A DNA stretch of 64,000 nt from Eledone cirrhosa (GCA_964016885.1 OZ024740.1:300018001-300082000); one strand, 5' to 3'; numbered from the stretch's first letter, positions 720 through 49,752 are shown. Translations and numbers: made by a program. Notes: generated from the sequence alone by a model not told the origin.

Positions 720-1548
720 TTCTTTATTAACCACAAGGGTTTACATAAAGTAGACATTAAGGACAGTGCAGGACAATACAGGACGGTACAAATGGGCATT
801 TCTGCGTGTAAAAAACAAAAACAGAAGATGTAACAAAAAAATAACAATGAAAAATTCCCCAATAGGGGGGAGAATTCGGAGGGACATTTGTGGAGAAAGC
901 CCAGTAAAAGGCCACAGTGACCCTGACCACCAAGGCAAGTGCCCTCTCCCAGTTTTCCACCTTTAATTTACAGATATATACTCAGAGTAGGCCCATTCAC
1001 TCGGGCCATTCTTGCTTTTCTCACCCATCTTTCAACAAAATGCTGGGAAGAGAGCACTTCCCTCTCTACTCTGATTTTCCTTTTCAAATGAAATTTGAAA
1101 AAGTCAATCAGAGCATCACCGAAGAGGTAAGTGCTCGTCTTCAGCCCTTTCGAACGTGTCCACCATACTATCTCTTTCGCCATGGCCACCAGACAGATAA
1201 AAACTGCCTGCCCTTCCCAGCTAAAGGAGGAGGGCGGGGCAATCCTCACGATGGACTCAGATGATAGCCGGATCCGTCCTACACGCGACAGCAGGTGTTC
1301 GACATAAACCCACAAGTCATCAATTTTCGGACACTGGACGAGTGCGTGCAGGACAGTATCGTCGCCCTGCGCGCATCTCGTACATGCCCGGCTGACGGCA
1401 CCTCCATGCCTGTAGAGTTTATCCAGAACTGGCAAGGCTCCTCGGTAGCACTTCCAGGCCAGAGATTTCTGTAAGTTGTCCATAGACCCTGGCCCGAAAG
1501 TTCTTCCGAAGAGATTGGTTAGTTGATTTTCGTCGACGCTTCCCAAGG
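720..1548 (-). mobile_element. 5'-truncated L1/Tx1-like LINE 3' end (zf-RVT-type C-terminal domain, 3' UTR, simple-repeat tail)
   Basis: ORF 968-1546 has W..YRGALPV...CTRC...DTVLHALVQC...W (CCHC motif downstream of RT in L1/Tx1 ORF2) and AKEIVWWTR; it is followed by a T-rich 3' UTR and a (TAT)n/(TAG)n/(CAG)n tract at ~622-718. Confidence 0.7.
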
Positions 1549-2221
1549 ATCTCCAGTTGATGTTAACTCTGTTTCCCAGGACTTCATAGTTTTGCCCAAC
1601 AACTGTCTGATGTTATCTGCCACCTTGAAGATCTCCAGGCTTTTGGTGATCCAAGAATGAGGCACCATGTCAAATGCCTTTTTGTAGTCTATATATCCCA
1701 TGGCAAGACTAGTGTGTCTCCTCTTGCAATTCCTCATTACCATCTTATCAATAAGTAACTGGTCCTTTGTACCATGTGACTTCTTTCGGCATCCTTTCTG
1801 TTCGTCCGGTAACAAGTTGTTTGTGTGGAGGTGATGGTAGATTTCCTCAGACATAATGCTTGTCAACAGTTTCCACATTACGGACAGACATGTGATAGGT
1901 CTATAGTTGGTAACATCATTACCCTTGATTCGGTCTTTCATTATCAGAACTGTGGTACCTTTTGTCAACCACTCTGGTACCTCACCTGACAACAAGCAGT
2001 CATTGAACATGGTTGTCAGTTTCGGGTGGAGGGATGTTATGTTTTTAATCCAATACCCCTGCACACCATCTGGGCCAGGTGATTTCCAGTTGGTTAGTTT
2101 TTTGGCCTGCCCCTTAAGAGTTTCAACTGTGATACTCAAATCAGTTTGTTGGTGTACCTGTTCACTGATCTCCTTCTGTACTGTCTCAATCCACACTGCC
2201 TGGTCATTATGTTTGACATCC
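1549..2221 (-). pseudogene. R4/Dong-type non-LTR retrotransposon RT fragment (second, divergent family)
   Basis: ORF 1519-2196: NWKSPGPDGVQGYWIK, NYRPITCLSVMWKLLT, EQKGCRK, KDQLLIDK, IDYKKAFDMVPHSW; truncated at both ends. Confidence 0.85.
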
Positions 2222-2226
2222 TTTTT

Positions 2227-2417
2227 GGTAGTATCGGTAGAGGGTCGGACGCCATGCTTTCCAGCATAGTTACGTCCCTTTACGATCTGAGTTCAAATCC
2301 CGCCGAGGTTGACTTTGCCTTTCATCCTTACGGGGTCGATAAAGTAAAGTACCAGTAAGGCCCTGGATAATTGCTGGCCTTGTGCCTAAAGAAGAAACAA
2401 TTATTATTATTATTATT
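2227..2417 (+). mobile_element. tRNA-derived SINE with (TTA)n tail
   Basis: A-box-like tggtagtatcgg, B-box gagttcaaatccc, body gcctttcatccttacggggtcgataaa..agtaccagt, (TTA)n tail; many copies in the window. Confidence 0.85.
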
Positions 2418-5400
2418 ACAGTTGCATTTATCTTGCTTTATGTTCATACGAGTTATCACCAAGTCACAACCAGTGACCTCAAGAGACAACAAGGTCCGCC
2501 ATGTTCAAGATAGAACATACATACTCACACATGCATCTTTAGTGTTTAGACTTGTGATGTACTTATATTGACAGAATCTTCCTTAGTATATGGGCAGTTC
2601 CCATTAGTACTATCTTTTGTATTTCTCCTATACGCGGGTTTCCTGGGATTTGCGATCAGTAATCAATAGACCCCTTAGGTATCATTCCCAGAGCGCCTAC
2701 AACCACTGGTATTGTTTTAGTTCTCAATTTCCACATTTTTCCAATTTCTATCTCCTGGTCCTTATACTTGCTCAATTTTTCAAATGTTTTTATAGATACA
2801 TTCTTGTCTATTGGAACAGACATATCAATTAGCAGGCATACCCTCTTTTTAAAGTCCTTCAATATTATATCAGGTCTATTTGCATCTATTTTTCGGTCTG
2901 TTTGGATGCTAAAGTTCCACAGGATTGATATGTGATCTTTTTGAAGTATGGGAGGTGGTTGATGCTCCCACCAATTCTTTTGATGGGGCAGGTCAAAATG
3001 CTTACACATTATCCAATGTATGTATTGTGCAGCTCTGTCATGCCTGTTTAGGTATTCGGTTAGAGCTATAGGACTGCACATTGAAATTATATGGTCAATG
3101 GTCTCTGGTTGTTTTTTGCATACACGGCATAATGGGCTGCATCCATTTTTTATTATGTTGGCTTGGTAATTTTTTATTGGGAGACACTGATCTTCTGCCG
3201 ATATAATCAGTCCTTCAGTCTCCGATTTCAGTCCAGAGGATGCCAACCACTGATGGGTTAAAGTTTTGTCAACATCAGGATTGTTAGCTCGCTCTGGGTA
3301 TTTTCCATACAGAGGCTTTTCTTGCCATTTCTTAGCCAGTTTCTGTAGCAGTTCTTTCTTTGCAGTTACTTTTACCTGCTTTGCTTTTTCTGTGTTTTCC
3401 ATTTCAGCAGTAAATGGGACTTCTGAAATTTGTAGTCCATTACTGTATCTTTGTGCATCTTTTGTAATGGAATATGATCTTTTGATGCTTTCGTGTTTCA
3501 AAACGAGTTTGATCATCCAATTATGTGATTCCCTTAGATATGTAGATAATCCAATTGTTGCAGTTTTCAACGCAATGTCTAACTGGATTAACCCACGTCC
3601 TCCTTCTTTCCTAGGGAGATATATTCTATCTATATCTGCTTTAGGGTGATGCATTCTGTGCATGGTTAAGAATTTTCGAATTTTTGTATCGAGCCTACGG
3701 ATCTCTGTGCTTGACCAGTTGATGACATTGTAACTGTAGGTTACTACTGGTATGGTAAGCGTGTTTATGGCATCGATCCTTGCATTCAATTCCGTTTTTA
3801 AGATTGCTCTCACTCTGCGGTAACATTCCTTCCTTATCCTTTCCCTCATTGTCGAGTGCTTGATTCCGTCTCCTTCACAAACACCTAGATATTTGTAAGT
3901 TTTTTCTTGATCAAGTTCTCTTATCACGTTCCCCCGATCAAGATTAATGTCTGAACTCTTCAGCAGCTTTCCTCTGGTGAACGTTGCTTTGGCGCATTTA
4001 TCTAGTCCAAACTCCATTTTAATGTCATCACTGAACTGCTTCACAGTGGATAATAGCCCTTGCAATTGTTCATCATTTTTTTGCAAATAGTTTCAGGTCA
4101 TCCATGTAGAACAGGTGATTAATGGTTTTGTCATAGACTTTATATCCATGTTTTGTTTCATTGAGCATTTTACTTAATGGTATAAGTGCGATGCAGAATA
4201 AAAGCGGTGATAAAGAGTCACCCTGAAAAATTCCACACTTAATATTAACCTCTTCAGCTTCCAGTGATTTTGTTTCACTATTCAAAAGGAGTGTCGTTTT
4301 CCATGTCTTCATACTGAATGACAAAAACCTCCTGACAACGGGGGATATTTTGAAAATCTCTAAACATTTTTCAATCCAACTGTGTGGCAAACTATCAAAT
4401 GCTTATTTATAATCTATCCAAGCAATCGATAGATTTTTGTGTCTATTATGACAATCTTCCAGTATCATATTGTTAACCAGAAGCTGATCCTTACAGCCAT
4501 ATGAGCCTCGTTTACACCCTTTCTGCTCAATGGGAAATAGGTCATTTGTTATCAGGTGGTCATATGTGTATTCAGTTATGACTGATGTTAAAATTTTATA
4601 CATTGTGGTCAAGCAAGTTATCGGTCTGTAATTTTTGGGATTGTTTGTCTCATCATTCTTCGGAAGCAGGAATGTAATGCCGTTAACTAGCCATGATGGT
4701 ATCTTTTCTGGCTCCTTAACTATTTCATTGTAAAGTTGGGCTAACAGCTCATGAGACTCTGTGAAGGCATTTATCCAAAAGTTTTGTATTTTGTCTTTTC
4801 CTGGGGATTTCCATTTGCTGGTTTTTCTTAGAGCCAAGCGCAACTGTTCAACTGTTATATTTTCCCATGTTTGTTCCTCAAGGTGAGCTGTATCTTTCAT
4901 TTGTCTGTCTATCCATGGGACATGTATGTTATGAACTTTTTCTTCGGCCCAGATCTTTTCCCAGAATTCTTGCACTTCCTCCTTGGGTGGTATTGATTTA
5001 GCAGTTATTGTTGACTTACCAATTTTTCTGTAGAAGTTTCTTTGGTTGTTTTTGAACATATTATTGTCCTTATAGAATCTAGATCGTTTTTCAAAGCGCC
5101 TTATACGAGCAGCTTTGGCCGACACTTTTTGCTTGATTATTTCTATCAGCATGTCTATGTCACATGTTGATTTTATACTGTACTTCTTTTTCAATTTTCT
5201 AAGTTTAGTTTGTTTAACATGTTCACCTACTTTATAGTTTGTTAAAATTTCTATGTCAGATCGGAGAAGGTTTATTTGGCGATTGATGTTCTCTTGCCAA
5301 GTAGATTTCTTGTGGGAATTCCTTTGTTTTTTCATCTTCACTCCACATAAGTGAGTGGTGACTCTAGTCGATGCATAATAGAGATGATTTAAATCAGTAA

Positions 5401-6305
5401 TGTTTAGTTTGTTTGTGATGATAATGTTTTTGAGAATTATGTTAGTCTTGTGTATTATCTTTTGGTTCTGTTTTGAGTTCTGGATCTTAGGGAGGGTGTC
5501 TCGTTGCCCCATGTCAGATTCTTTCATTTTCATCCATTCGATCATAATTTCATCCTTCAAGTTGGCAAGTTCATTCTCATTCATTTCTTTATCATTTACG
5601 ATCTCATTATTTTCATTTGGAGTTTCATCCTGAGCATGCACTCCCTCCACTTTTTCGATCCTTTCTTTAATTTTTTCTGTTGCCAGTGATTCCGCCCCAA
5701 CCCTGGGATTCGAAGTGTTACAGTTTACCTCGTTTTCACTGACACATGTTTCATTTTCCCCTCGCTGACTTTGTGCTAATAGCTTGATCTGATCAATTTC
5801 TATATTAGTTAGTAACTTTTTTCTTACAATATTTCTTCGTATATTGGCTAGTTTGTTGCTGTCAATATAGCCTCTTTTTTCGGGATGTTTCTTTTTCCAG
5901 TTGATATATGTCTGTTCTGTATTCGATGTATTTGATGGGTAGTACATGGCAGTGTAGAAAGCCTCAAGGACTTCTTTATTATCTTCCCTTGACCATTTTT
6001 CTCTATTTTTCTTTGGATTTCTTGGTGGTGAGCATGGAGGGCCAACAGTAGGAGTATTCCGGTTATGGGAGGTCTCCAGCTCCGAAGTGATGGGAAGGTT
6101 TGAACCATTAGCTAATTTTTCGACCCCAGTCTGGTTCCTCTCTGAGGGACGCGGCCCTTTTTTACCCGGGTGACGGCCGATCCGGTATGAGATTTTACCG
6201 CCATCCCGGTATTTCTTGGTCGCGGGGTTTTGATTTTGTTGTTTTTTTAAATTGTTATTATCATGAGTGGTTCCTTAATGTGAGCATTGCGTGGCTTAAG
6301 AATGA
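2418..6305 (-). mobile_element. Near full-length R4/Dong-clade non-LTR retrotransposon (RT + CCHC + restriction-like endonuclease), inactivated
   Basis: One ORF from ~6260 to 2563, split by a nonsense codon at ~4403 (IDYK*AFDSLPHSW) and frameshifts at ~4080 and ~2656; motifs KWKSPGKD, YRPITCL, GIFQGDSLSPLLF, HLFYMDDLKL, GGRGL, CRVC..ETIDHIISMC, RHD, RPDII..LIDMSVP..K..KY; the 3' end abuts (TAA)n. Confidence 0.93.
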
Positions 6306-7184: not shown

Positions 7185-7266
<82 letters not shown>

Positions 7267-7290
7267 ATATGGTTAAAAGTGTTCCATGTA

Positions 7291-7357
7291 TTTTATTATG
7301 CGCATTTCAAAAACAAATATCATCATGGGATGATATTTGCGTTCTCATCAGATAAAA
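7291..7357 (-). ncRNA. Type I minimal hammerhead ribozyme in the Naiad-like PLE terminal repeat
   Basis: Minus strand: ttttat-CTGATGA-gaacgcaaatatcatc(ccat)gatgatatttgtttt-t-GAAA-tgcgca-TA-ataaaa; stems I and II pair, stem III is palindromic. Confidence 0.85.
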
Positions 7358-10300
7358 TAGGGAGACATGATATGAAGCTTAAAAAGCCCTTGCTAGCAGT
7401 GAAGTGTTAAATCAATATACGAAAAATAAAATAAGATGGATATATGAGATTGGAAAAAAAAAAGACAGGAAGGGGGAAAGAAAAGGTAAGGAAGAGGAAG
7501 AAAGAATATAGATAGAAGAAAAAAAAATAATAAGGAAAGGATGACCGAGGAGGAATATAAGAAGGAAGGATGAGAGAGGAGATAATGAGTGAGAGAGAGA
7601 GAGATAACCTTTAATACTGAGAAACACTGTCTCACAGATAAAAATTATAGAAAAACCGTTGTAAGATAATACATAATTTAAAAAAATTAGAAATTAAAAG
7701 TTAATGAGGTTTATCAATGGTGATGCTAATGATTAAAGAAAAAGGAATTAAGAATACTAATTATTGAAGGGTTTAATAAGATGTGCGAAAAGGAATTTAT
7801 TAAAATGCATTATTAAAATAAAATATATTAAGAAGATAAGGTGAATGAAGATAAGGTTAATTGAATTATGAACTTAGAGGAATTAATTAGAGTCGAAGTT
7901 TGTTTCTATATATTGTAATAGGAAAAAGTAAATAATAGATTTAATACGAGCATGGAAGGAGAGAACAAAGAAGAAAAAATTCATGGAAGAAAAAATATAT
8001 AACGTCAAAAAAATATGTTTACAAAATTTTTCTAATGGTAATATTAAAAATAAAAATTTGTATGGCCGAGAATATAAGGAAAATGCTATAGTGAGTTATA
8101 AGATGAATTAAGAAGGAATTGAGAAGTAAAAGTTGCAGATTAAAGATTAGAAATTAAAAAAGAAGAAAATTAGGGGACCGCTAACGACATAATATGAGTA
8201 ATATTGTATAATATACTGAAATAAGGTAGAATGATGCTTATATTTGTAAAAAATATAAAAGCGTTTGAAAAAAAAAAGATTTTAAACTAATTAGGTAGTA
8301 AGATATTAGCTGTATACTTTATGGAAAGTTCTATGGGATTTATGCAAACAGAACGAAAATAAGTCCGTACGTCTATTTATTATAGAATTACAATTAGAGA
8401 TAATGCTAAATTTCTCCGCTAAACAGAGATTACATGTTCTGGATAGGAAAGAATTAAGGTAAGGACAGGCATTGCAAACGTGTGTCCAAGAATGTTGTAG
8501 TTAATATTTTTGTCCTTTAAGGACCATATGAGTTCTGAGAGTGGTGTGTTTGTTCTTTTAAGTTGGTATTTAAAAGAAGAATTGTGATTATAAAATCCTG
8601 CCTTAAAGGAAGTGGAAGTGGAACCAAAATAGGTAAAAGAATTAGTACCAGTTATAACCTTACATTCATGCACTAAATTTTTATCAAGACATTAGTTACT
8701 AAGAGGACATTTAGTTCTAACAGGGCAATTGCAATTACGATTACTGAAATTACCAGAGTTATTAGCAAGTGACCCAGTATTATTTATAGAAGGAGTTGAA
8801 TTGGAGAAGTTACTTATGATAGGTGCTAACATTTCCTGATTTAGATTGGTATTATGAACATTCGACAAAGTTACGTTTGACGTCGTATTTAAAATTACAG
8901 AATCTAGCCTAGAGTTCAGATTGACGTCCGGCTTACTATTGTTATTATTATGACGCTCAGTGTTGGATGGGTATGATTTATTACTTAATATTTTAGTATT
9001 ATGTTTTGAGATAATGTTAGCGATGGTGGAATAAGAGAATTTAATTGTTTGCTTATTAAAGATCTTAATATAAATATGAGGGAAGCATTTATCTAAGGCC
9101 CTAAAAAATAGTTTAGGAATATTACTAATAATAGATAGAGGAAAAGGAGCGTTGTACCATATCATATTTTTATATCTAGGTCTTTTCTTTATACTATTGG
9201 AATGCTTATAACTAACTATATTACTATAAGTTCCTCCATGATTGGTTTCTTTACTGTATTTAATTTTGTCAGGATAACCGGCCCTGGAAAGCGCATTGTT
9301 GTAATAATTGGCTTTAGTGTCAAAGATAAGTTTATTAGAAGATAGATTTGAGATTCCTTTTTCAACATTACTGTCTATAGCATTTTTAACGTTAATAGGG
9401 TGGTTAGATTTAAAATTAACATAATTTAGATTATCATTGTCTTTATGGTAAGGCTAATATAGGCCGGCGTCAAAATTAAAGATATATCCAGGAAATTAGC
9501 TAGTTTGACGTTTTTTTCAAATTCAATTTTTAGGTTATGGTGCTTAAATAGATCAAGTATATTATTTTTAATAATATTAAGGTTAACTAAGTTACAGTTT
9601 AAGACAGTAAAAAGAGAATCGTCACGATAAATTCCACCGCGAAGTTGAGGAATTTTCCGATTTAAAGAGTTCAAAATAAGGATTCCAACCAAGTCCGTCA
9701 ATTGCGCTGAATCCGACGAACCCATTGTGATATCAAAATTGTTGGAAGTATCAGCTCTAGTCCAATATTCGTTGTTGAATTCCAGGATAGTTGTTACTTG
9801 CGGTGAGAATGATGTACAATTCATCTGTCGTGATGTCAGAATATTTAAATGCAAAAGAGAGAGCGTTGTTGAGGAGTGAAGGCGAAATGGTAGAATAGTA
9901 ACTGGCAATGTCAAACTGAATACATTTTTGTTTGTTTTTATTATTCAGGTCATTGAACCAGTCGATTACATCAGATGTACCAATCCTTAAATTAGCACTC
10001 AACAGTTTATAGGACTGGAGTATAAATAATATAAAATAATTGCTCTATTTCTAACTTAAATTTATGGATTGGTACATCTGATGTAATTGACCGGTTCAAT
10101 GACCTGAATAATAAAAACAAAAGTATTAAAAGTTATCTCTCTCTCACGCATTTTCTCCTCCTCTCTCATCCTTCCTTCTTATACTACTGCTCCGTCATCC
10201 TTTCCTTATTATTATATATTTTTTCTTCTATCTATATTCTTTCTCCCTCTTCCTTACCTTTTCTTTCCCCATTCCTTTCCTTTTTTTCCAATCTCATATA

Positions 10301-10383
10301 TCCATCTTATTTTATTTTTCATATGTTGATTTAACACTTCACTCTTCGCAAGTGTTTTTTAAGCTTCATATCATGTCAGCCTT

Positions 10384-10450
10384 TTTTATCTGATGAGAAC
10401 GCAAATATCATCCCATGATGATATTTGTTTTTGAAATGCGCATAATAAAA
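10384..10450 (+). ncRNA. Type I minimal hammerhead ribozyme (inverted repeat copy)
   Basis: Same motif as 7291-7357 on the + strand; CTGATGA at 10390, GAAA at 10433. Confidence 0.85.
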
Positions 10451-10625
10451 TACATGGAGCTCTTTTCACCATCTTTTGATTTTATATTATTTATACTCCA
10501 GTCCTATAAACTATTGAGTGCTACTTATCCGGTATTTGCATTGCTTTATTGTGCTGCAATAAAACTCACCTCCTACATATATATAATATTATATATATCA
10601 TATTATAATAATAATAATAATAATA

Positions 10626-12892: not shown

Positions 12893-14307
12893 TTGTGTAT
12901 ATATATATATATACTCGAATTTTCTCTTCTCTACAGCGTAGAGTAGATAGCAGACACTGAAGAAATATATTGTTCTATTTCTATTGCATTTCAAGACAGA
13001 ATTCTGAGGCGCCCAATATCTCTTTTGCATCTTTCGCGTTTCCACATTTGCAAAAGCGGTGTTTACGGATAAATAACACTATTCACACGTTGTTAGTAGC
13101 GTCCCCTCCTCTTGGCAACGATTTATATCAGGAGCCAAGTGGTCTGAGAAATGTCGGCAATCAAATGTAGCATTTCCCTTTAAAATTAACTTTTACATTT
13201 ATGAAATTAGGATAATATCTTTTCCCTAAACATTATTTTGTTCTTTTCTTGTTATTTTCGATTCCGTGAAAAGGCAGTCACTAAATTCCTTCTCACCTGT
13301 ATAATTGAAAATGTTGTCATTATAGATTCAGAGAAGAAATCCAATTCTTTACTTCATGCGAAATCATTGTATCATTTTTCAAGATTGCTATCGCTATTGT
13401 TTCTTCTGCTAATTGAAAAGTAACGTTTTATCATTTCTTACTTCAAATGGCATATTCTGATGTCCTTTTTGGTTTATATTTCAACAAGTTTATATTAAAA
13501 AAAGTGGCTCATATTCCACTTAAATAGTTTTATCATAAAAGCAAAATTATCTGCACGTTTTATAGCAGGCAGACATTTACTTTGAAACAAATGGAAAGTT
13601 CATAAGATATGAAAATAAGTCTCTATTTAGCTTTTTTAACTCTGTCATTAATGTGATGAGACATAACTGAAGAACAGTGGATGATAGTAAAATAAGTTGT
13701 TTGCATTAGTTTGAGTTCTTTACCCTTTCTGATTTTAGTGGAAAACACATCATAAATAGATGGAAGTCTGGAAAACTTTACCTACTTCATTTACAAAGCG
13801 TTACTCTATAATCTGTGTAAACAAATATATCGATATAAAAAAAGAACACTTGCATATCCCATGTGCAAGTATTTGTTTTTGTTTCCTTAATCAATGTTTC
13901 ATCTGCTACAACATTTGAAATATTTTTACCGTTTCTCATAAAACCACAAATTAAATTTTACATTAGTTTGGGAGGGAATTCATACTAATAGACAAAAAGA
14001 AAAAGTATTCATATAAAACTAGATGCCTTTTAAACGGAAAAAATGAAACGAAATTTCATTTCCCACTCTTAGTACGACTGTTAGTTAAATATAAGTATGT
14101 ATACGTACATACATATATGTATACAGACGTACAGTAGTATGTATATATATATATATATACATACATGCACACATATATATATATGTACGTATGGATTCAC
14201 CGAACATTTATTATAATGCTCGGTGTGTTTGTAAACAAACATCCCGTATTAAGCCGTAGTGTCTAGCAACCATCGTTGCGCGTTTGTTCAACACTGACAA
14301 AGGAACG

Positions 14308-14344
14308 CTGTACTAGTTTCAAACTTATTAGCTATCGTCAGCAA
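14308..14344 (-). ncRNA. Type I minimal hammerhead ribozyme (437-bp family)
   Basis: Minus strand: ttg-CTGACGA-tagct(aata)agttt-GAAA-ctag-TA-cag. Confidence 0.75.
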
Positions 14345-14575
14345 CCTATACCTTCCTGCCAGTATGATTGAACGTCTGAAAGTAGATACTTTCCTTATGC
14401 ATATTATCGCCTGAGCAGCCTAATTTGCATATCGAGTGGTTAAATCGGCCGGATGCACCGAAAACGATAAACGGAAAAATGAAACGAAATTTCATTTCCC
14501 ACTCTTAGTACGGCTGTTACTTAAATATAAGTATGTATACGTACATACATATATATATATACAGACGTACAGTAG

Positions 14576-14610
<35 letters not shown>

Positions 14611-14613
<3 letters not shown>

Positions 14614-15220
14614 AGGTCACCACTTGGTGCTACTGGTAACATGTATCCCAGTACAACCTGTTTCATGGTCGGGTCGTTGGCGACTAAACTGGCAACCCCA
14701 CCAAGGTTTCTTGGTGAGGAGGGTGACTTTGGACATCCTGCAGGACTAAAAACAAAACCTGTCAAAGGGCAAAGGAGCTCTTAAGAGTCAATGGCCATCC
14801 AAAATCACTGGGAGAGATGACCCCTTAGCCTTTGTCAAGGCAGAATTCTAGGAGAAGGAAAACTCTGATATAACACCTGCAACCCTGATGGTATCCAATG
14901 ATGTTGACTTGTTCTTCTTTTTGGTAAATATCATCTTGGTTAAGAGAGTGGGACTGGCTTTGTGCAGTGCCTTTGCTCACTATAAAAGCTTCACGGCACA
15001 GGCATTGCTTTATATCTGGAGATCTCTCTGCACTTGCCGTCACATGGTACCATGGGCCCAGCACTATGTGTCAATAATTGTCACAAGTGTAGTGTTTGTA
15101 CCAGAGTTTTCAAGTCGCTGGCTGGACTAAAAAGTCACACTCGTTCAGCGCATCGGTAGGGGTTCTCCTACATGGATATATAGTAGTGGCCGTACTCGAA
15201 AACGAGTTGGCAGCCACCAT
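14611..15220 (+). mobile_element. Bipartite RTE-derived non-autonomous retroelement (~610 bp), copy 1
   Basis: The 5' part resembles an RTE 5' UTR (ggagaaggaaaactctga); the 3' part encodes a C2H2 remnant CSVCTRVFKSLAGLKSHTRSAHR* typical of the RTE ORF2 C-terminus; near-identical copies at 19078-19597 and 30022-30632; sits in a (TA)n tract. Confidence 0.75.
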
Positions 15221-15379
15221 ATATATATATACGTACATGCACACATATATATATGTACGTATTGTATGTACGTATACATACTTATATTTAAGTAACAGCC
15301 GTACTAAGAGTGGGAAATGAAATTTCGTTTCATTTTTTCCGTTTATCGTTTTCGGTTTCGGCCGGTTAACCCACTCGAT

Positions 15380-15387
15380 ATGCAAAT
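15380..15387 (+). promoter_or_regulatory. Octamer motif ATGCAAAT conserved in the 437-bp family
   Basis: Also at 14423-14430 (-), 16447, 16879, 38621 and 49068; 88-89 nt upstream of the hammerhead core wherever a core follows; function inferred only. Confidence 0.45.
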
Positions 15388-15464
15388 TAGGCTGCTCAGG
15401 CGTTAATATGCATAAGGTAAGTATATACTTTCAGACGTTCAATCATCTGGAAGGAAGGTATACT

Positions 15465-15501
15465 CTGCTGACGATAGCTAATAAGCTTGAAACTAGTACA
15501 G
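15465..15501 (+). ncRNA. Type I minimal hammerhead ribozyme (437-bp family)
   Basis: ctg-CTGACGA-tagct(aata)agctt-GAAA-ctag-TA-cag. Confidence 0.82.
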
Positions 15502-15794
15502 CGTTCCGTTGTCAGTGTTGAACAAACGAGCAACGATGGTTGCTAGACACTACGGCTTAATACGGGATGTTTGTTTACAAACACACCGAACATTATAATA
15601 AATGTTCGGTGAATCCATACGTACATATATATATGTGTGCATGTATATATATATATATACATACTACTGTACGTCTGTATACATATATGTATGTACGTAT
15701 ACATACTTATATTAGATGCCTTTTAATATAATAAAACATTAGCACTATTTTTACGATTGAGATAGTCGACACTCTTATTGTTTTCATTATAAGA

Positions 15795-16161: not shown

Positions 16162-16246
<85 letters not shown>

Positions 16247-16248
<2 letters not shown>

Positions 16249-16940
16249 GGAAAAAATGAAACAAAATCTCATTTCTCACTCTTAATACGGCTGTTACTTA
16301 AATATAAGTATGTATACGTACATACATATATGTATACAGACGTACAGTAGTATGTATATATATATAGATACATACCCATATATATATATATGTACGTATG
16401 GATTTACCGAGCAATTCGGTGCGCCCGGCCGATTAACTCACCCGATATGCAAATTAGGCTGCTCAGCCGTTAATATGCATAAGGAAAGTATATACTTTCA
16501 GACGTTCAATCATCTGGAAGGAAGGTATACAGTGCTGAGAATTATTAATAAGCTTGAAACTAGTACATCGTTCCTTTGTCAGTGTTGAACAAAAGGGCAA
16601 TGATGGTTGCTAAACACTGTACGGCTTAATTCGGGATGTTTGTTTACAGACAAACCGAGCATTATAATAAATGCTCGGTAAATCTGTAGGTACATATATA
16701 TATGTGTGTATGTATGTATGTATATATATACATACTACTGTACGTCTGTATACATATATGTATGTACGTATACATACTTATATTTATGTAACAGCCTTAC
16801 TAAGAGTGAGAAATGGAATTTCGTTTCATTTTTTCCATTTATCGTTTTCGGTGCGCCCCGCCGATTAACTCACTCCATATGCAAATTAGGCTGCTCAGCC
16901 GTTAATATGCATAATTAGGCTGCTCAGCCGTTAATATGCA
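16247..16940. repeat. 437-bp family locus: short inverted piece (16247-16412) plus ~1.2 direct units; degenerate hammerhead at 16532-16568
   Basis: atgcaaattaggctgctcagcc at 16447 and 16879 (432-bp period); core mutated to CTGAGAA. Confidence 0.8.
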
Positions 16941-17435
16941 TCTGAAGCCAACTATCATGTTTTCGTCGATATCATATTGCTAATATAAGGATGTCTTATA
17001 TTGTAACAGAATCTCAACGACACCGAGGACAAGTATATTCATTTAACTGGCTACAATACTTGCCCTATATTTAATTCACCCAAACCTAAACATCAAACAC
17101 AATTTGGATACTGGCAAGATCTCAACTACTCAGAATGTAAAAGAACGCTATAAAATAAATCGCGCAGTTTGCCGTAAAAGTTTTGGCGATGCGCCTAATT
17201 CAATGACAAAAAAATTACGGAAAATGTAAATACAGTATGACATAAAATGATTGGGACCGTATATAATTTAATGACGAAATATTTTTGAGTGAAATAACTT
17301 TAGTAAAGCTATCACACAACGTAGAATATTAGAGATGTTTTAAATTAACTAGAATCATGGATTTGATAGGCTATATGAGCGTTTGAAATATTCGAAAATG
17401 ACACCAGCTATTTCATAAAGAGGAAAACGTGGCTC

Positions 17436-17609: not shown

Positions 17610-17699
<90 letters not shown>

Positions 17700-17887
17700 G
17701 GTTTGTTGGTTCACCACTGGATAGAACTGGTCATTCTGTATAGTCAATCTCGATGTCATATTATGGAGAGCACTCAACATAATGCAACTCACCTGTCTTC
17801 GTTTGTGTTGTTGGTGGTGCGAGTACGGAGTTAATTATTATAAAATAACAGGAGGCTGGACTGGTGTAATTCCTTAAAAGTTTTATT

Positions 17888-17945
17888 ATACTATGATCAT
17901 TTCAATGACCGGGTTCAGTATGAATCCGGTGACATCATCAGGTAT
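17888..17945 (-). ncRNA. Type I minimal hammerhead ribozyme
   Basis: Minus strand: atac-CTGATGA-tgtcaccggattca(tac)tgaacccggtcatt-GAAA-tgatca-TA-gtat. Confidence 0.8.
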
Positions 17946-18070
17946 TCGAAATATAACAAAGGACTTCAAGGCGGCTGACCGGGATAGAAGCTGCTAAAAT
18001 TTCGGTAGCCCTCATGTCTGCTTTTCAGCCCCATGAAATTTGTTTATTATATTTCTTTGTTATATTTCGA

Positions 18071-18128
18071 ATACCTGATGATGTCACAGGATTCATACTG
18101 AACCCGGTCATTGAAATGATCATAGTAT
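18071..18128 (+). ncRNA. Type I minimal hammerhead ribozyme
   Basis: atac-CTGATGA-...-GAAA-tgatca-TA-gtat; palindromic stem III. Confidence 0.8.
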
Positions 18129-18185
18129 AATAAACCTTTTAAATAATTACACTAGTCCAGCCTTCTGTTATTTTATAATATATAT

Positions 18186-18474
18186 ATTGTTATACTTGGG
18201 GAGTGTCATATTTGTGTAATATTGCCAGCATTAATAACAGAACACACTCACTGTTTGGTTGGTTTTCGCTTTTCGCTTCTGTGTCTTTTATATCGGTAAT
18301 CTAATTTATTCGGTCCTCAATGTTGCCATTGACTGACCATCGGTCAAAACTAATACAGATACAATATAGACACAAACACATATATACAGTTTATAAAAGG
18401 TCTTTCGTTGCACATCTGCAACATCGTCAGTGGTGCTATTGTTTCCTCCCGTTACATTGTATTTTCTACGCCAT

Positions 18475-18480: not shown

Positions 18481-18525
<45 letters not shown>

Positions 18526-18570
18526 GTGACGAAACATAAGTCAATTGCATGAACTCATAATCCTTTATTT

Positions 18571-18626
18571 ACTGCTATATATATTTCGATGATAGCCATT
18601 AAATGGCTATGACCTCATCAGGCAGT
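18571..18626 (-). ncRNA. Type I minimal hammerhead ribozyme (separate family)
   Basis: Minus strand: actgc-CTGATGA-ggtcatagccat(tta)atggctatcatc-GAAA-tatata-TA-gcagt; perfect 5-bp stem I. Confidence 0.83.
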
Positions 18627-18691
18627 TAGTCAGTTCTTAAATATGCCAGCTTTGTGTGTATAGTGTTGATGGTACCATAGCCTTGGGACAC

Positions 18692-18781: not shown

Positions 18782-19079
18782 TAAAATAACAGATTAAAGT
18801 TTAAGCAAAGAATCGCTACTTTCACCCTTAACGGGATCTTCTGAAACTAACAAAGTCAATCTGTAAATGCAGACTGGATATTTCAAAAAACGTTGCAACC
18901 GGAGGAAGCCAGGAAGACGATACTTTGGTTCGTGAAAACGTTCGCTGGCTAAGAACGGGACAAAAACGAATATTATACGTCATTAATAGGATCGGTGAAA
19001 AACAATTACGCGCAAAGTATCGTCTTCCTGTCTTCCTCCGGTTGCAACGTTTTTTGAAATATCCAGTTCTGCATTTACA
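18780..19079. repeat. Dispersed repeat with internal inverted arms (~18862-18927 / 19014-19079); related copy at 39085-39205
   Basis: tgtaaatgcaga..gacgatactttg pairs with caaagtatcgtc..tctgcatttaca; 18780-18897 matches the reverse complement of 39087-39204. Confidence 0.7.
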
Positions 19080-19597
19080 TGTATCCCAGTACAACCTGTC
19101 TCATGGTCGGGTCGTTGGCGACTAAACTGGCAACCCCACCAAGGTTTCTTGGTGAGGAGGGTGACTTTGGACATCCTGCAGGACTAAAAACAAAACCTGT
19201 CAAAGGGCAAAGGAGCTCTTAAGAGTCAATGGCCAGCCAAAATCAGCGGGAGAGATGACCCCTTAGCCTTTGTCAAGGCAGAATTCTAGGAGAAGGAAAA
19301 CTCTGATATAACACCTGCAACCCTGATGGTATCCAATGATGTGTTGACTTGTTTTTCTTTTTGGTAAATATCATCTTGGTTAAGAGAGTGGGACTGGCTT
19401 TGTGCAGTGCCTTTGCTCACTATAAAAGCTTCACGGCACAGGCATTGCTTTATATCTGGAGATCTCTCTGCACTTGTCGTTACATGGTGCCATGGGCCCA
19501 GCACTATGTGTCAATAATTGTCACAAGTGTAGTGTTTGTACCAGAGTTTTCAAGTCGCTGGCTGGACTAAAAAGTCACACTCGTTCAGCGCATCGGT
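19078..19597 (+). mobile_element. Bipartite RTE-derived element, copy 2 (truncated at both ends)
   Basis: Near-identical to 14640-15157. Confidence 0.8.
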
Positions 19598-20039
19598 ATA
19601 CTCATTTATGTAACTACAAGCAATCATGTGCCTTCTCACTTAAACGTCTTATCGTCCTCTTAACTTTATAGGTGATGAGTTCGCTTGTGAATTCAAACTT
19701 ATTTTTCTATGCAAAATCATATTAAAAATTGTATTAACTGCAAGTTTTATTCTTTTCGTTTCTTTTATTTTTGGACGGCGAAGAGTAAGATTCAAGATTT
19801 TCATTTTGCATCTAAATTTTATATTTATCGATTACATATAAGTTTATACACATAGATGCAGATGTTAATGGTTTCTGATGTTGTCTTTGTTAGATCAATA
19901 TAATTTATTGAAAGAAAAAATATATATCATGTAAATATTCATATTATTAGATAATCTTATTTTCAAATCTGTAATGGTTAAGCCCCGTTGTTTAACTACA
20001 GATTTGGGTTACACAACAACGCTAAATATATACTTATAA

Positions 20040-38374: not shown

Positions 38375-38459
<85 letters not shown>

Positions 38460-38466
<7 letters not shown>

Positions 38467-38911
38467 TGCTACTCTACGTCTGTATACATATATGCATGTA
38501 CGTATACATACATACTTACATTTAAGTAAGTGCCATACAACGAGTGAGAAATGAAATTTCGTTTTCATATGTTTTCAACTTATCGTTTTCTGTATGCCTG
38601 ACCGATTTAACTCACTCAATATGCAAATTAGGCTGCTCAGCAGTTAATTTTACTAAGGAAAGTATATACTTTCGAACGTTCAACTATCTGGCAGATGGCT
38701 AAACGGTGCTGATGATAGCTAACAAGCTTGAAACTAGTTCATCGTTCCTGTGTCAGTGTTGAACAAAAAGGTGACGTGGTTGCCTTAACACCGTATGGCA
38801 TAAATTCAGGCTGTTCAGTTTGTTTACAAACGAACAAAGCGGCGTTATAATAAGCGTCCGCTAAACTGATGCGTGCATATATGTATGTGTACCTGTATGT
38901 ATATATGTATA

Positions 38912-38942
<31 letters not shown>

Positions 38943-39060
38943 GCATGCTACTGTACGTATGTATACATATATGTATGTACGTATACATACATACTTACAT
39001 TTAAGTAAGTGCCATACAAAGAGTGAGAAATGAAATTTCGTTTTCATATTTTTTCAACTT
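38460..39060 (+). repeat. 437-bp family locus (~1.25 units; period lengthened to ~480 bp by microsatellite)
   Basis: gagtgagaaatgaaatttcg at 38542 and 39021; octamer at 38621. Confidence 0.8.
38702..38746 (+). ncRNA. Type I minimal hammerhead ribozyme (437-bp family)
   Basis: aacggtg-CTGATGA-tagct(aaca)agctt-GAAA-ctag-TT-catcgtt; 7-bp stem I. Confidence 0.82.
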
Positions 39061-39203
39061 ATATATATATATATATATATATAGTGTGTAACGTTTTTTG
39101 AAATATTTACTTCTGCGTTCACAGATTGATTTTTTTAGTTTCAAAAGATCCCGTTAAGGGTGAAAGCAGCGATTCTTCGCTTAAACTTTAATCTGTTATT
39201 TTA

Positions 39204-39239
<36 letters not shown>

Positions 39240-39448
39240 CGTTTCAGAATTTGTTTAGCAAGATTCTTTATATGAAAACGTCTGTTGAAAGCGATATTAT
39301 TATACTTTGGGAGGGTCATGTTGTCAATAAGAAACACACGCACCAGGTGCTTTTAACTTCAATTTATTATAATAAATTTATAAATTTAGGAATTCATAAA
39401 TTTCCGGTTGGTTGGTTGGTTCCACAACCAGATGATTGTTTATATATT

Positions 39449-39491
39449 GTCAAAGTTCTTTCGTCACACATTCTGTGACCTCTTCAGTGAC
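39449..39491 (-). ncRNA. Minimal hammerhead motif in the inverted PLE repeat
   Basis: Reverse complement of 44266-44308. Confidence 0.65.
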
Positions 39492-42400
39492 TGGGGATTC
39501 TTTTCTTTGTTTTTGGTGCCTCTCCTTTGTTCTGTCCTACGCCATCTTGTTTTTTGTGTGTGTTGTGTGCTTAGTTTGCGCATGTGTTACATCCGGGTGT
39601 CCGTGTGTGTTTATATTCGTTTATTTATTTGTTTATTTGCATGTTACTGGTTGGTTGTTTGTTCTATGTGCGTGTGTGTTTTCATTTTGTCCTTACTTGT
39701 AAGTTGTGATGTTGCTGTTCTATTCATGTATTCTATTTAATTTTGGTTGGAGTTCATTTATGTTTATTGCCTCTGTGATTTGTCTAAACATTGCGTCTTT
39801 TCTGTGTGCAGATTCTATATTTATTTCTATGTTCTCTAATTTACCCTTATGTTCTATTTTAGCATGTTGGTAGAGTACAGATAATTCTTTACTAACTTGA
39901 AGGTCTCGCCAGTGTTCATTTATCCGTTCCCCTATACTACGAGCTGTCTCACCTATGTACACTATATTTTTATCTCTACATTGTCCTTCAGTACATCTTA
40001 TGCTATATACTACATTTCTAGTTTTACAGTTAATATGGAGGCTTAATTTACAGATTATACATTTCTTATCCCTACAGGGAGGTCTTTGAAAAGGGTATGC
40101 ATTGCTAATAAGTGTTTTTATGGAGGTACCTGGTCTTTCTACTATCTTAATATTGAGTTTATGTTTATCTAGGGCCCTTCTAAATTTGTAAGCTAATTCA
40201 CCTCTAGGGGTTGTATCGATGAACATTACACTCTGGTATTTATTGCTATCATACCATGAGTTTATTCTATTAGCCTTATTCCTTGTTCTTTCTATTCTAT
40301 TCCAAAATTTTGTCTTATACAAGGGACAGGTCCCATTTGTGTCATTATTTACCGTTTATTCCCATTTGGTTCTGGCTCCTCTATATACTCTGATTTTATC
40401 TCTCTGATTCTAAACAGAGAACTGCATACGGTGGATGAAGTGTTGTATGTGTCTCTCTATTCTTTGGGGTTGCACATGCGGGACACGTTTCTCCTCACTC
40501 ATACCAAATCCGCAATCAGTATGTTGATTTTGGTATTGTCCGAAACAGCTGAGTTTCGGTGGATTAGATATTTGGAAGTCATGGGTTTGGCATAATGGGA
40601 ATGGAGGATTTGTTATTTGTTATTAATGGTATCTAACCAGAGCTCTGTGTATAGTAGAGGAAATCCATGGTTGGGGTGTTTGCTTGGGTAGTCTATATAA
40701 CTCAAGAAAAACATAAGCGTAACCTAATACAAGAAATATCTAAGATCACCACACCAAGATAAAAAATAATATTTATAAGCCTTATATGTCCTGAAGAAAA
40801 GTACATTGTTCTAGAAGGTGACAAGCACTTTAACAAGAAACTAAAGTAGCTCAAACAGATAAAACTAAATCAAGATACTTTAGAGAATATCCATAGATAT
40901 CGCGACAAAATTTTCGGTATAAATATGGCCGACATCTCATTAACAGATGAATTCAACAACAACAACACAAATATATACGGCAATACTACGGTCGACTCTG
41001 ATGAATTATCAGTATTACAACTACCACCTAAGTATGCCACATTTAATAAGGTAAATATGATTAAATGCTTGTCAGAAATAGAAAAATCATTTACAAAATT
41101 ACGTTGGAGCCTCAAAGACACAAACAAAAACAAAAGTAACAACATACGCACACAAACACACATATACAACACACAACCCAACAACAACAGACACACAGAC
41201 ACAAACAACAATAACAACAACACACACATCAAAAATAATAACATACTCCGAAACAACAACAACAGACACGCAGACACAAACAACAATAACAACACACACA
41301 ACAATAATAACATACACGGAGAGAACAACAACACACATCCACAACAGCACACATCAACAACAAAAACAACAACACACACACATTCAATGCCTCTCACCAC
41401 CACCACAATCTTAACAAACACACAGACACAGAAAACAGGTAAAGACAGTAGCATAGAAATAAGGGAAGGTAATAGGATTGAAAGGAGAAGGGAGACTATG
41501 GACAGAGAAAATAACCAGGACGAACACACAGACACACAAAATAGAGTATAATAACAATGAGCCAGAGGAAAGAGAGAGGAGTAATAATGAGAGACATAGA
41601 AACAACCATGAGGCTGTTGGTGGAAATAGAAATAGAAACAACACAACTAACAATAACAATAGCACTAGTACACATAAAGCAGCAGCCTGGAACTCTACTT
41701 TTTATAATCCCTCCGATAAGTCGTTCGACCTGCGACGAGTCCACGCCATGACTTTAGATTTTAACAAACGCACGCAATTGCCGTCGCAGGTCGATGAACA
41801 AACAGAAGCACAATTTAGTATAGCTAGATCTAAACTTAGAAATATTATAGAACAATATAGCAAGAAGCATAATAGAATGGAGGCCCAGCAACTGGGAGAA
41901 AAATCTGCAAATGGCTTGCGTAAGCTCATGCAGCGCTCGCGTAATGGAGAGATAGCATGCTTTCCAACAGACAAGCCTGGCAGAATGTCGGTTGACAGTC
42001 TGCCAAACTACATCCAGGAAATGCAACCCCACATCACTAACACAAGAGAAGTAACACCACAAGAGCATGAGGATAGAGAAAAAGCCCTCAATGCCCATAT
42101 GATGATGTGGACAAATATAATGCAGCCCAAATAAAGGACTGCCAACAACTTCCAGGCCTGGAACAATGACGTGCCAGCGTTGTATGGGCTTCGAAAAGAC
42201 CATAAAACGAGCAGTGACCCTGTCACAGGACCACCAACACGGGCAGTCTGTAGAGCTAACATTGCTAATAACTACAGACTGTCCTACTTCCTCTCCCTGA
42301 TCGTACGCCACATCAATGAAATGTCCCCAGATGTATGTGACAGCACGGAGGACCTCCTCAGCAGAATCGGCGAGAGTAACCGATCTAGGGACCTAACAAA

Positions 42401-44265
42401 GTGCATAATGGTAGTATGGATGTTGTGTCCCTGTATCCATCTATTGACGTGGATTTTGCAGTGGAGAAATGCGTAGAAATGATCAGTGAGAGAAATGTTG
42501 AATTCCGTGGGATTGATACCAGTGAGCTGGGACTCCTACTTAAACTTACCTATAGCAATAATTATCTAGATACATATGAGCTTAGCAACCTGTGCCCTAC
42601 AAGACCAGCGAGAGGCAGACCACCTACCATTACCTCAATGGCTAGGAAAACCCACACAGATAGATGGAACGGGTGGACCAGAGACATACGGACCCCCGAA
42701 AACCACGATGAACTAAAGTAAATGATTGCACATGCGGTGGGGGCCAGCAAAAAATTAACCCTTAAGGAACATATGTTGAGATTTAATGGAAAAACATAAG
42801 CCCAAGAGTAGGGAGCAGCCATTGCAGGGGACTTAGCTAACCTATTTATGGTATGGTGGGACAGTAGACTTAAACTTAAACTTAAACTTAAAGATAAATT
42901 AGATGACCGCTCAACCCTGATAATGTACTCTCGCTACGTTGATGATATAAACATCGTAGTAAAAATACCCCCACTAGAGAACAGTCAGGAATTAAAGAAA
43001 AACACAATGGAAAGCATCCAGCAAAGAGCTAACTCCATCCACCAGAGTATTAGAGTTACTATAGACTACCCGAGCAAACACCCCAACCATCGATTACCTA
43101 TACTAGACACAGAGCTCTGGTTAGATACCATTAATAACAAAAAACAAATCCTCCATTCCCATTATGCCAAACTCATGACTTCCAAATATCTGATCCACCG
43201 AAAGTCAGCTGTTTCGGACCATACCAAAATCAACATACTGATTGCGGATTTGGTACGAGTGATGAGAAACGTGTCCTGCATGTGCAACCCCAAATAACTA
43301 GAGAGATACATACAACACTTCATCCACCGTATGCAGTTCTCTGGTTACAACCAGAGAGATAAAATCAGAGTATATAGAGGAGCCAGAACCAAATGGGAAA
43401 AAATGGTAAATAATTACACAAATGGGACCTGCCCTAGTATAGGAGCAAATTTTGGTATAGAATAGAAAGAACTAGGAATAAGGCTAATAGAATAAACTCA
43501 TGGTATGATAGCAATAAATACCAGAGTGTAATGTTCATCAATACAACCCCTAGAGGTGAATTAGCTTACAAATTTAGAAGGGCCCTAGATAAATATAAAC
43601 TCAATATTAAGATAGTAGAAAGACCAGGTACCTCCATAAAAACACTTATTAGCAATACATACACTTTTCAAAAACCTCCCTGTATAGATAAGAAATGTAT
43701 AATCTGTAAATTAAGCCCCTATATTAACTGTAAAACTAGAAATGTAGTATATAGCATCAGATGTACTGAAGGACAATGTAGAGATAAAAATATACTGTAC
43801 ATAGGTGAGACAGCTCGTAGTATAGGGGTACGGATAAATGAACACTGGCGACACCTTCAAGATAGTAAAGAATCATCTGTACTCTACCAACATGCTAAAA
43901 TAGAACATAAGGGTAAATTAGAGAACATAGAAATAAAAATAGAATCTGCACACAGAAAAGACGCAATGTTTAGACAAATCACAGTTGCAATAAACATAAA
44001 TGAACTCGAACCAAAATTAAATAGAAAACATGAATTGGACAGCAACATCACAACTTACAAGTAAGGACAAAATGAAAACACACACGCACATAGAACAAAC
44101 AACCAACCAGTAACATGCAAATAAACAAATAAATAAACGAATATAAACACACACGGACACCCGGATGTAACACATGCGCAAACTAAGCACACAACACACA
44201 CACAAAAACAAGATGGCATAGGACAGAACAAAGGAGAGGCACAAAAACAAAGAAAATAATCCCCA

Positions 44266-44308
44266 GTCACTGAAGAGGTCACAGAATGTGTGACGAAAGA
44301 ACTTTGAC
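44266..44308 (+). ncRNA. Minimal hammerhead motif in the PLE 3' terminal repeat
   Basis: gtca-CTGAAGA-ggtcaca(gaatg)tgtgac-GAAA-gaac-TT-tgac; very short stem III. Confidence 0.68.
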
Positions 44309-44577
44309 AATATATAAACAGTCATCTGGTTGTGGAACGAACCAACCAACCAACCGGAAATTTATAAATTCCTGAATTTATAAATTTATTATAATAAATT
44401 GAAGTGAAAGCTACTGGTGCGTGTGTTTCTTATTGGCAACATGTCCCTCCCAAAATATAACAATGTATATATGTATATATAATCATATCTTCGTGTACAG
44501 ATATTATTGCATACACAATAACAAAATATGAACAAATTTTTTATTTCACGAGGCTCGACAGCAGCAAAAACAACATC

Positions 44578-48456: not shown

Positions 48457-48489
48457 CATACATACATAGATACATGTATATATATATAT

Positions 48490-48618
48490 ATGGAAAAAAT
48501 GAAGTTTCATTTCTCACTCTTAGTACTGCTGATACTAAAATATGAGTATATATACGTACATACTTACATACTTATATGTATACAGACGTGCACTAATATG
48601 TATATACATACATACATG

Positions 48619-48657
<39 letters not shown>

Positions 48658-48816
48658 GTATGACAGCTAATAAGCTAGAAACTAGTTCATCGTCCCTTTG
48701 TCAGTGTTGACCAAAGGGCAACGATGTTTGCCGAACACTGTACAGCTAATAATTCGAGCTGTTTGTTTACAAACAAACCGAGCATTATAATAAATGTTCG
48801 GTAAACCCATACGTAC

Positions 48817-48894
<78 letters not shown>

Positions 48895-49312
48895 ATGTAT
48901 GTATGTGCATGTATGTATGTATATACATACTAGTGCACGTCTGGATAATATATGTATGTACGTATACATACTTATATTTAAGTATCAGCCGTACCAAGAG
49001 TGAGAAATGAAATTTCATTTTTTCCATTTATCGTTTTCGGTACACCCGGCCGACTAACTCACTCGATATGCAAATTAGGTTGCTCAACCATTAATATGCA
49101 TAAGGAAAGTACATACTTTCAAACGTTCAATCGACTTACAGGAAGGTATACGGTGCTGATGACAGCTAATAAGCTAGAAACTAGATCAACGTTCCTTTGT
49201 CAGTGTTGACCAAAAGGGCAACGATGGTTGCCGAACACTGTACGGCTAATAATTCGGGATGGTTGTTTACAAACATATCGAGCATTATAATAAATGTTCG
49301 GTCAACCCATAC

Positions 49313-49355
<43 letters not shown>

Positions 49356-49419
49356 AGTGTATGTATGCATATACATACGAGCGTACGTCTGTATACATAT
49401 ATGTAAGTACGTATACATA

Positions 49420-49425
<6 letters not shown>
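48490..49425. repeat. 437-bp family locus: inverted piece (48490-48660) plus ~1.6 direct units with a truncated (48661-48692) and a mutated (49151-49191) hammerhead
   Basis: tgacagctaataagctagaaactag occurs twice, 499 bp apart; octamer at 49068. Confidence 0.8.
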
Positions 49426-49504
<79 letters not shown>

Positions 49505-49710
49505 ATACAAACAAATATTGTTATACTTGGGGAGGGTCATATTTGTGTAATATTGCCAGAATTAATAACAGAATACACTCACTGTTTGGTTGGTTTTCGC
49601 TTCTGTGTCTTTTATATCGGTTAATTTAATTTATTCGGTCCTCAATGTTGCCATTGACTGACCAACGGTCAAAAATTCAGATACAATATAGTCACAAACA
49701 CATATAGTCT

Positions 49711-49752
49711 ATCAAAGTTCTTTCGTTGCACATCTGCAACATCGTCAGTGTT
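49711..49752 (-). ncRNA. Hammerhead-like motif in the PLE terminal repeat
   Basis: Minus strand: aaca-CTGACGA-tgttgca(gatg)tgcaac-GAAA-gaac-TT-tgat; weak stem I. Confidence 0.55.

Follow-up and report, generated by a model that had tools for sequence, protein, structure and literature searches.

How did a short non-coding unit carrying a hammerhead motif come to lie as an inverted pair within one direct repeat, and which machinery moved it? Here, we addressed this question in a 64,000-nucleotide stretch of the Eledone cirrhosa genome (GCA_964016885.1 OZ024740.1:300018001-300082000), referred to below as the window. Locus 1 (14020-15726) is a head-to-head pair of unit copies, with arms of 1.36 and 1.06 units lying within an exact 14-bp repeat. 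The sense strand of the unit is the one that reads the hammerhead, and unit coordinates (c1-c428) follow the consensus. The locus is composed of the following features, where sites A and B are two preferred 3' ends described below:

14020..14033, plus strand: target-site duplication, left copy; its last 3 letters also fit the unit
14031..14612, minus strand: main part of the left arm, with its 3' end (site B, tailed) at about 14031-14034
14295..14365, minus strand: type I hammerhead of the left arm, with an intact core; on the minus strand, cleavage is predicted after 14311
14611..15217, no strand assigned: unrelated 607-bp high-copy repeat within the TA run of the left arm
15219..15262, minus strand: remainder (5' part) of the left arm; inversion point 15262/15263
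15263..15713, plus strand: right arm of about 1.06 units, with its 3' end (site A, tail-less) at 15712-15713
15450..15520, plus strand: type I hammerhead of the right arm, with an intact core at 15468-15498 and cleavage predicted after 15498
15713..15726, plus strand: target-site duplication, right copy; 1 letter also fits the unit

The direct repeat which the first-pass annotation had placed at the borders is TAGATGCCTTTTAA; the window has exactly two copies of it (14020-14033 and 15713-15726). Since three letters on the left and one on the right are shared with the unit, the true duplication is 10-14 bp long, and 9 letters lie beyond any possible microhomology (p ~3e-6). Locus 1 is valuable because it was inserted into unique sequence, while elsewhere TA-type targets hide most target-site duplications (TSDs). 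The annotation had omitted the 607-bp repeat that splits the left arm. Further copies of this repeat are present in the window at 19077-19598 and 30026-30632 (98% identity), and since it interrupts the TA run of the left arm, it arrived later than the arm itself. It is flanked by (TA)n, has no long ORF and contains a C2H2-like stretch near its end; it may resemble an RTE-type LINE with an internal deletion.

Searching the window with the first unit, we recovered the family at all four loci that had been claimed. The other three are:

16243..16941, both strands: locus 2, unit copy in two arms; hammerhead broken
38427..39061, plus strand: locus 3, divergent subfamily, 77% to the main consensus; single orientation
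48486..49429, both strands: locus 4, another subfamily; hammerheads broken or truncated

At locus 2 the minus arm (16243-16416) ends at site B in (TA)n, the plus arm (16415-16941) has a non-canonical end, and the CUGANGA box of the hammerhead is lost. Locus 3 has a site B end in (TA)n and a hammerhead core at 38709-38739 with a GUU site. At locus 4 a minus arm (48486-48636, site B) and a plus arm (48662-49426, site A) both end in (TA)n; the cleavage triplet is mutated in one unit and the core is truncated in the other. Thus, an inverted arm is indeed found at three loci (1, 2 and 4, not 3), while the hammerhead that was said to be carried by each unit is confirmed in both arms of locus 1 and at locus 3 (GUU), not at loci 2 and 4. 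The periods measured between like sites are 436 and 425 nt (locus 1), 479 nt (locus 3) and 449 nt (locus 4); the annotation had given a unit size of 432-499 bp.

The consensus of the unit is 428 nt long (GC 0.374, i.e., 37%). It is non-coding, as the longest Met-to-stop frame on scanning the consensus is 53 aa, and no LTR-type structure was seen in it. In the 3.0-Gb assembly, we counted 10,815 exact matches to a 31-nt core pattern and 27,392 to a relaxed version of it, with 0 matches for the reversed controls of either. Sampled copies fall into at least four subfamilies; the main and the most distant consensus are 89% alike in c1-90, 87% in the ribozyme and 61% in c179-278, and variation in unit length sits within an internal TA-rich block. 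Most copies are dispersed insertions of 1-3 units, more than half of the sampled ones being two-armed, and their median divergence from the consensus is 4.2%. Tandem arms and arrays are found as well, so the family has the short tandem unit and low GC of an animal non-LTR retrozyme. Two or more successive units, each bearing a complete ribozyme, exist in the family (in insertion L018 and in a 55-kb array), while locus 1 has one complete ribozyme per arm. The unit is also present in assembled contigs of three sequencing runs (presence only), and both locus 1 junctions were recovered in contigs of one run, possibly from the same sample. A 533-nt contig from a second organism spans the whole unit with about 20 differences, and the family may thus be common to a relative.

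The hammerhead is of type I, with the order stem I, CUGAYGA, stem II (AGCU/AGCU), GAAA, stem III, GUA and stem I. Stem positions are paired in 95.4% of cells among 38 diverse copies, while slid controls give 34-44%. Position 32/68 of stem I is occupied by U-G, G-U, A-U and C-G and thus covaries. The rows are related, so the covariation amounts to a few events, and the pairing failed to exceed two of the five shuffle measures. For one natural unit the predicted fold has z = -9. The core is intact in 96 of 121 copies that were not selected on it, and the fold is retained across subfamilies that are only 77-89% alike. Among individual copies we found no extra conservation of the core (1.6% versus 2.0% for the rest); this is as expected if dead copies decay evenly and selection is confined to the source lineages. 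In Rfam, no hammerhead was found among the 150 of 202 matches listed, which were low-complexity, miRNA-type and below the gathering score. Two features of the motif are weak: stem III has only two pairs, within the palindrome ACUAGU, and a U.U stands at the base of stem II in 174 of 174 copies with a matched core. The former resembles the axolotl ribozyme HHR_Amex1 and the latter HHR_Amex2, both of which are inefficient in monomeric form and cleave well when dimeric (Cervera and de la Pena 2020, PMC7229834). For the ribozyme of the unit, we predict weak activity in the monomer and cutting in the dimer. We infer self-cleavage from the motif, keeping in mind that cleavage was found in just one of nine predicted Xenopus elements (Li, Clavereau, Pollet 2026, 10.64898/2026.07.22.740005).

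The unit thus belongs to a class that is already known, the animal non-LTR retrozymes, described as tandem units of 150-450 bp for which mobilisation by Penelope-like elements (PLEs) via circles has been proposed (PMC7229834). What sets it apart is an unusually clear footprint of mobilisation. We examined the insertion ends in two samples. Sample 1 consisted of the window and 106 non-redundant loci (29 chosen by similarity, the remainder taken from C1 as the first loci to match the core exactly), after removal of 8 loci that overlapped. Sample 2 consisted of 60 new loci selected on c178-207 and is independent of sample 1. In sample 1 the 3' ends of the unit cluster at two places, c370-379 (site A, 73 arms) and 428+0-9, just beyond the unit boundary (site B, 62 arms), while the 5' ends are scattered over the whole unit. 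The distance between A and B is 59 nt, or 61 in subfamily 3 by hand count. There were 54 inverted insertions in sample 1, of which 35 have two canonical ends, and all 35 combine one A with one B. The same holds for 22 of the 23 such insertions among the 32 inverted ones of sample 2, giving 57 of 58 for both samples joined (p=2e-16 against 50%), and for 8/8 in subfamily 3 by reading. One non-canonical end is seen in 19/54 and 9/32 inverted insertions of samples 1 and 2, respectively. The exception in sample 2, L299, was scored as B+B, though a short A-type piece lies further out; among insertions with short arms, which our filter missed, L105 may be A+A and L081 B+B. Single-arm copies are common.

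Canonical ends were followed by TA-type sequence in 64 of 82 cases of sample 2, and since they run into such sequence, most TSDs are hidden. At other non-TA sites, e.g., L023, L040, L103 and L106, candidate TSDs are 7-17 bp long. Insertions of the unit and of PLEs often lie tail to tail in one (TA)n tract (L199/L113, L211, L114 and 49429-49504 of the window), which indicates a shared target that is reused repeatedly. As a separate observation, 5' ends in sample 2 are over-represented at c201-220 (12 stops against an expectation of about 3 in 764 exposed bases); possible causes are pausing at a structure, a start site, or the way a 2-nt indel at c212 affects the alignment.

Three PLE-type elements are present in the window, each with its own hammerhead and inverted termini. 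The best candidate helper is the family of the following one:

39239..44464, plus strand: PLE2, coding Penelope-like element with RT, CxxC linker and GIY-YIG; frame-broken

The left end of PLE2 is tailed and the right one is tail-less. Its frames gave only sub-threshold RT and GIY-YIG matches against Pfam, and its terminus translates as the start of a frame by hand translation. The linker is of the CX4CxxC form of Neptune and Nematis PLEs, where it is thought to target microsatellites (Craig 2021, PMC8557442). The PLE2 ribozyme has 5,302 exact matches in the genome. Among 45 PLE2 loci, all 23 inverted pairs with canonical ends are A+B; the spacing between A and B (the tail) is 60 nt, compared with 59 in the unit, and the target is likewise (TA)n. 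In insertion L022 a tailed 3' fragment of PLE2 is joined head to head with an A arm of the unit, the one such chimera among the 125 free 5' ends that we examined. On average, copies of PLE2 are younger than those of the unit (median 2.6% from consensus versus 4.2%). When the unit was compared with the termini of the window's three PLE families (PLE1/2/3), no similarity exceeded that of shuffles. The assignment of PLE2 as candidate helper rests on the footprint and one chimera; alternative candidates are PLE families not seen here and the related PLE3. The latter (49500-54330) is a second Neptune-like PLE with inverted termini and hammerheads at 49758 and 54075; another PLE3 terminus lies near 18180-18470, and a terminal motif is common to PLE3 and PLE2. 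The third PLE-type element (7260-10600) has inverted hammerhead-bearing termini and a tail of roughly 100 nt by eye, and lies in (TTA)n, not in (TA)n.

The statistics of the ends, the target preference, the PLE2 footprint and the chimera support the proposal of the first-pass annotation that this is a non-autonomous hammerhead retro-RNA moved by PLE machinery. We consider it quite probable that the 428-nt non-coding retrozyme is inserted by a (TA)n-targeting PLE protein with RT and GIY-YIG domains, likely from a single RNA. The same proposal had described an inverted unit as being mobilised; there is no fixed inverted unit, and the arms are better read as separately primed copies. According to the model, the PLE protein would nick both target strands, 7-17 nt apart, and priming on one RNA would start from one nick at site A and from the other at B. 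Two active sites would hold this RNA, one at A and one at B, and each would use one of the nicked strands as its primer. Both cDNAs would extend toward the RNA 5' end, across the ribozyme site, and would stop at random (at about 0.4% per base), after which the two would be joined head to head. Failure of the second priming would leave a single-arm copy.

Several features of this model have counterparts in the PLE of the anole, whose protein is a predicted dimer, cuts and extends both strands, prefers AT-rich DNA and has two internal RNA start sites that define the tail (Frangieh 2024, PMC11167929). In the anole assay, however, the start sites did not differ between strands, which counts against the model. 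Foldback of a single cDNA was rejected as the source of the inversion, since the 5' ends of the two arms rarely match and the B arm extends past the A end. Classic L1-type twin priming fits just a few non-canonical cases (L014, L020 and L087).

What form would the template RNA take? In a set of 100 arms anchored downstream of c160, some of whose loci also belong to sample 1, c165 is reached in 95 passes, and 92 of these 95 continue past c150. No excess of 5' ends was found at the cleavage site (2 stops observed versus 4.1 expected), so the idea of a pile-up there is rejected. A cleaved linear monomer would halt the cDNAs at c160, and since no excess of such halts is seen, the template should be either a circle or an uncut multimer. 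We lean toward the circle, in which case the ribozyme would cut a dimer into monomers that are then circularised.

A homogeneous uncut multimer is nevertheless a serious possibility. Here the element would again be mobilised by a PLE, while the template would be a linear multimer transcribed from genomic tandem arrays, with no circle; the hammerhead would be a weak or protein-assisted passenger without a role in insertion. As a variant of our favoured explanation, it is weighed on the premise of PLE mobilisation. It is consistent with the anole PLE, which uses uncleaved, unprocessed RNA and whose ribozyme mutants insert normally (PMC11167929), with the weak features of the hammerhead, and with mosaic arms such as those of L099, L114 and L270. 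A possible source exists as well, namely the 55-kb array (C1:96983276-97039030; L313, L310, L287, L288, L311, L312 and L289), in which 123 unit starts were counted on the plus strand. However, the units of this old array differ by many private changes, whereas dispersed multi-unit arms have markers and rare variants in common; there is no sharp pile-up of 5' ends marking a transcript start, and the ribozyme fold has been kept across subfamilies. Like one two-armed insertion, the array still has both ends, A on an inverted arm that is short and B within (TA)n, and its 11.7-kb higher-order period points to later expansion.

The markers also bear on whether one RNA served both arms. Two indel markers agree between the arms of an insertion in 33/36 and 37/41 comparisons, and within arms, between tandem units, in 31/33 and 58/65; random draws would give 47% and 38% discordance. 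Rare variants are shared at 3.1% between arms and 5.5% within arms, i.e., 16-fold and 29-fold above the rate between loci (0.19%), and such sharing was seen in 8/64 and 11/59 loci, respectively. One template lineage per insertion is therefore the rule, with about one in ten being mosaic; the discordant tenth indicates mixed templates or later conversion in some insertions. Agreement between arms could also reflect conversion or lineages active at different times. The L022 chimera and the 7 discordant comparisons among 77 between arms would suit an alternative in which the two arms derive from different RNA molecules and the A/B rule follows from the order in which the strands are primed, and not from one RNA held at two sites. 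With 70 of the 77 comparisons in agreement and rare variants shared so far above background, we regard this alternative as unlikely.

It is very unlikely that the unit is the pseudo-LTR (pLTR) of an as yet unseen coding PLE, amplified by 5' truncation. Its ends and inversions do match PLE termini, and our examination covered 125 free 5' ends and three PLE families. However, in every arm of more than one unit the tail continues into the next unit and not into an ORF, whereas in coding PLEs it runs on into the ORF (PMC11167929; Arkhipova 2013, PMC3846280); also, the consensus lacks a long frame, and no common upstream flank or fixed 5' boundary is present. No recurrent sense-joined RT/GIY-YIG ORF was found at the 125 free 5' ends, where we saw the one head-to-head chimera as well as insertions next to other elements or within them. 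Within this scope, the unit was not found as a coding PLE's terminal repeat, which the annotation had named as a competing identity; it may well originate from such a pLTR. The other competing identity, a DNA transposon (MITE or foldback) or plain satellite spreading at the DNA level with a chance hammerhead-like motif, has largely been refuted already and appears highly improbable. In its favour, locus 1 looks like an extended inverted repeat flanked by a TSD, there are large tandem arrays, and an A-to-G strand bias among rare variants is not significant (A>G 91 versus T>C 77, p=0.54). Against it, the ends are asymmetric and 59 nt apart, the centres and TSD lengths vary, many copies are single-armed with random 5' ends, stem I covaries, and even the 55-kb array keeps its A and B ends. 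With a looser variant cut the counts were A>G 133 versus T>C 94 (p=0.04); scars of RNA editing are unsupported by the rare variants.

Returning to PLE mobilisation, the favoured reading can be carried one step further, tentatively and with rather more doubt than confidence. A dimeric PLE protein would grip an RNA circle made by the ribozyme at two sites 60 nt apart, rolling copying would proceed from both nicks at once, and the unit, lacking recognisable homology to its helper, would imitate the latter's start sites only in spacing and structure. If true, an obligatory rule of one tailed and one tail-less end would explain inverted, tailed PLE insertions generally.

The unit shares much with the metazoan non-LTR retrozymes, namely an AT-rich non-coding tandem unit, a type I hammerhead, thousands of copies and a TSD of more than 4 bp (10-14 bp at locus 1). 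The inverted arms and fixed end sites seen here are not reported for that group in the available text of PMC7229834, whereas of cleavage and circles, both demonstrated there, the former is predicted and the latter are possible in our unit. Animal retrozymes have been argued to be non-autonomous PLE derivatives on the basis of co-distribution and pLTR homology (10.64898/2026.07.22.740005). With these our family shares co-occurrence with PLEs and the forms of monomers, dimers and long arrays. However, while many Xenopus retrozymes have homology to pLTRs, our unit has none to the three local PLEs, and its link to PLEs consists of the insertion footprint and one chimera. No mollusc is among the classes named in the available text of that study.

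PLE copies themselves are often tailed on one end, include inverted 5'-truncated copies and are biased to (TA)n (PMC8557442). The likeness of the unit to the PLE pseudo-LTR (PMC11167929, PMC8557442, PMC3846280) extends to two RT start sites, a tail on one end, the head-to-head inverted 5'-truncated copy, partial tandems, a TSD of about 8-10 bp and a (TA)n bias linked to the CxxC linker. It differs in lacking an ORF and in a tail of 59-61 nt instead of 30-40, and the one-of-each rule, counted here (57/58; PLE2 23/23), is qualitative in the available texts of these three sources. Non-autonomous Chlamys PLEs, e.g., MRC1, are also non-coding, multicopy in head-to-tail order and dependent on PLE machinery, but they share 3' sequence with their autonomous partners and are mostly without hammerheads (PMC8557442), in which the unit differs. 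Among the full texts available to our literature search, none was found that gives an account of this family or of a counted one-of-each rule.

The mechanism of tandem, inverted and tailed PLE insertions has been called open (PMC11167929, PMC8557442), and PLE mobilisation of animal retrozymes via circles was proposed earlier without demonstration (PMC7229834; 10.64898/2026.07.22.740005). The present family supplies counted rules (one A and one B end, a single template lineage per insertion, and read-through of the cleavage site) and a named candidate helper with a matching footprint. Moreover, a 428-nt unit is small enough to serve as substrate in the published in vitro PLE assay.

Other elements were noticed in the window. 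Retroelement-like ORF fragments lie at 1519-6274 and 968-1612 and include two opposed RT-like frames and a zf-RVT piece, and a possible DNA-transposase fragment without a Pfam match lies at 61306-61839. Hammerhead-like motifs occur as an inverted pair at 17951/18065 and singly at 18631, within two short non-coding pieces (17697-18185 and 18525-18690) that end in (TA)n and are possibly other retrozyme or PLE termini. The first of these pieces has a weak similarity to the tail of subfamily 3, with a score above 100/100 shuffles in one of 16 comparisons.
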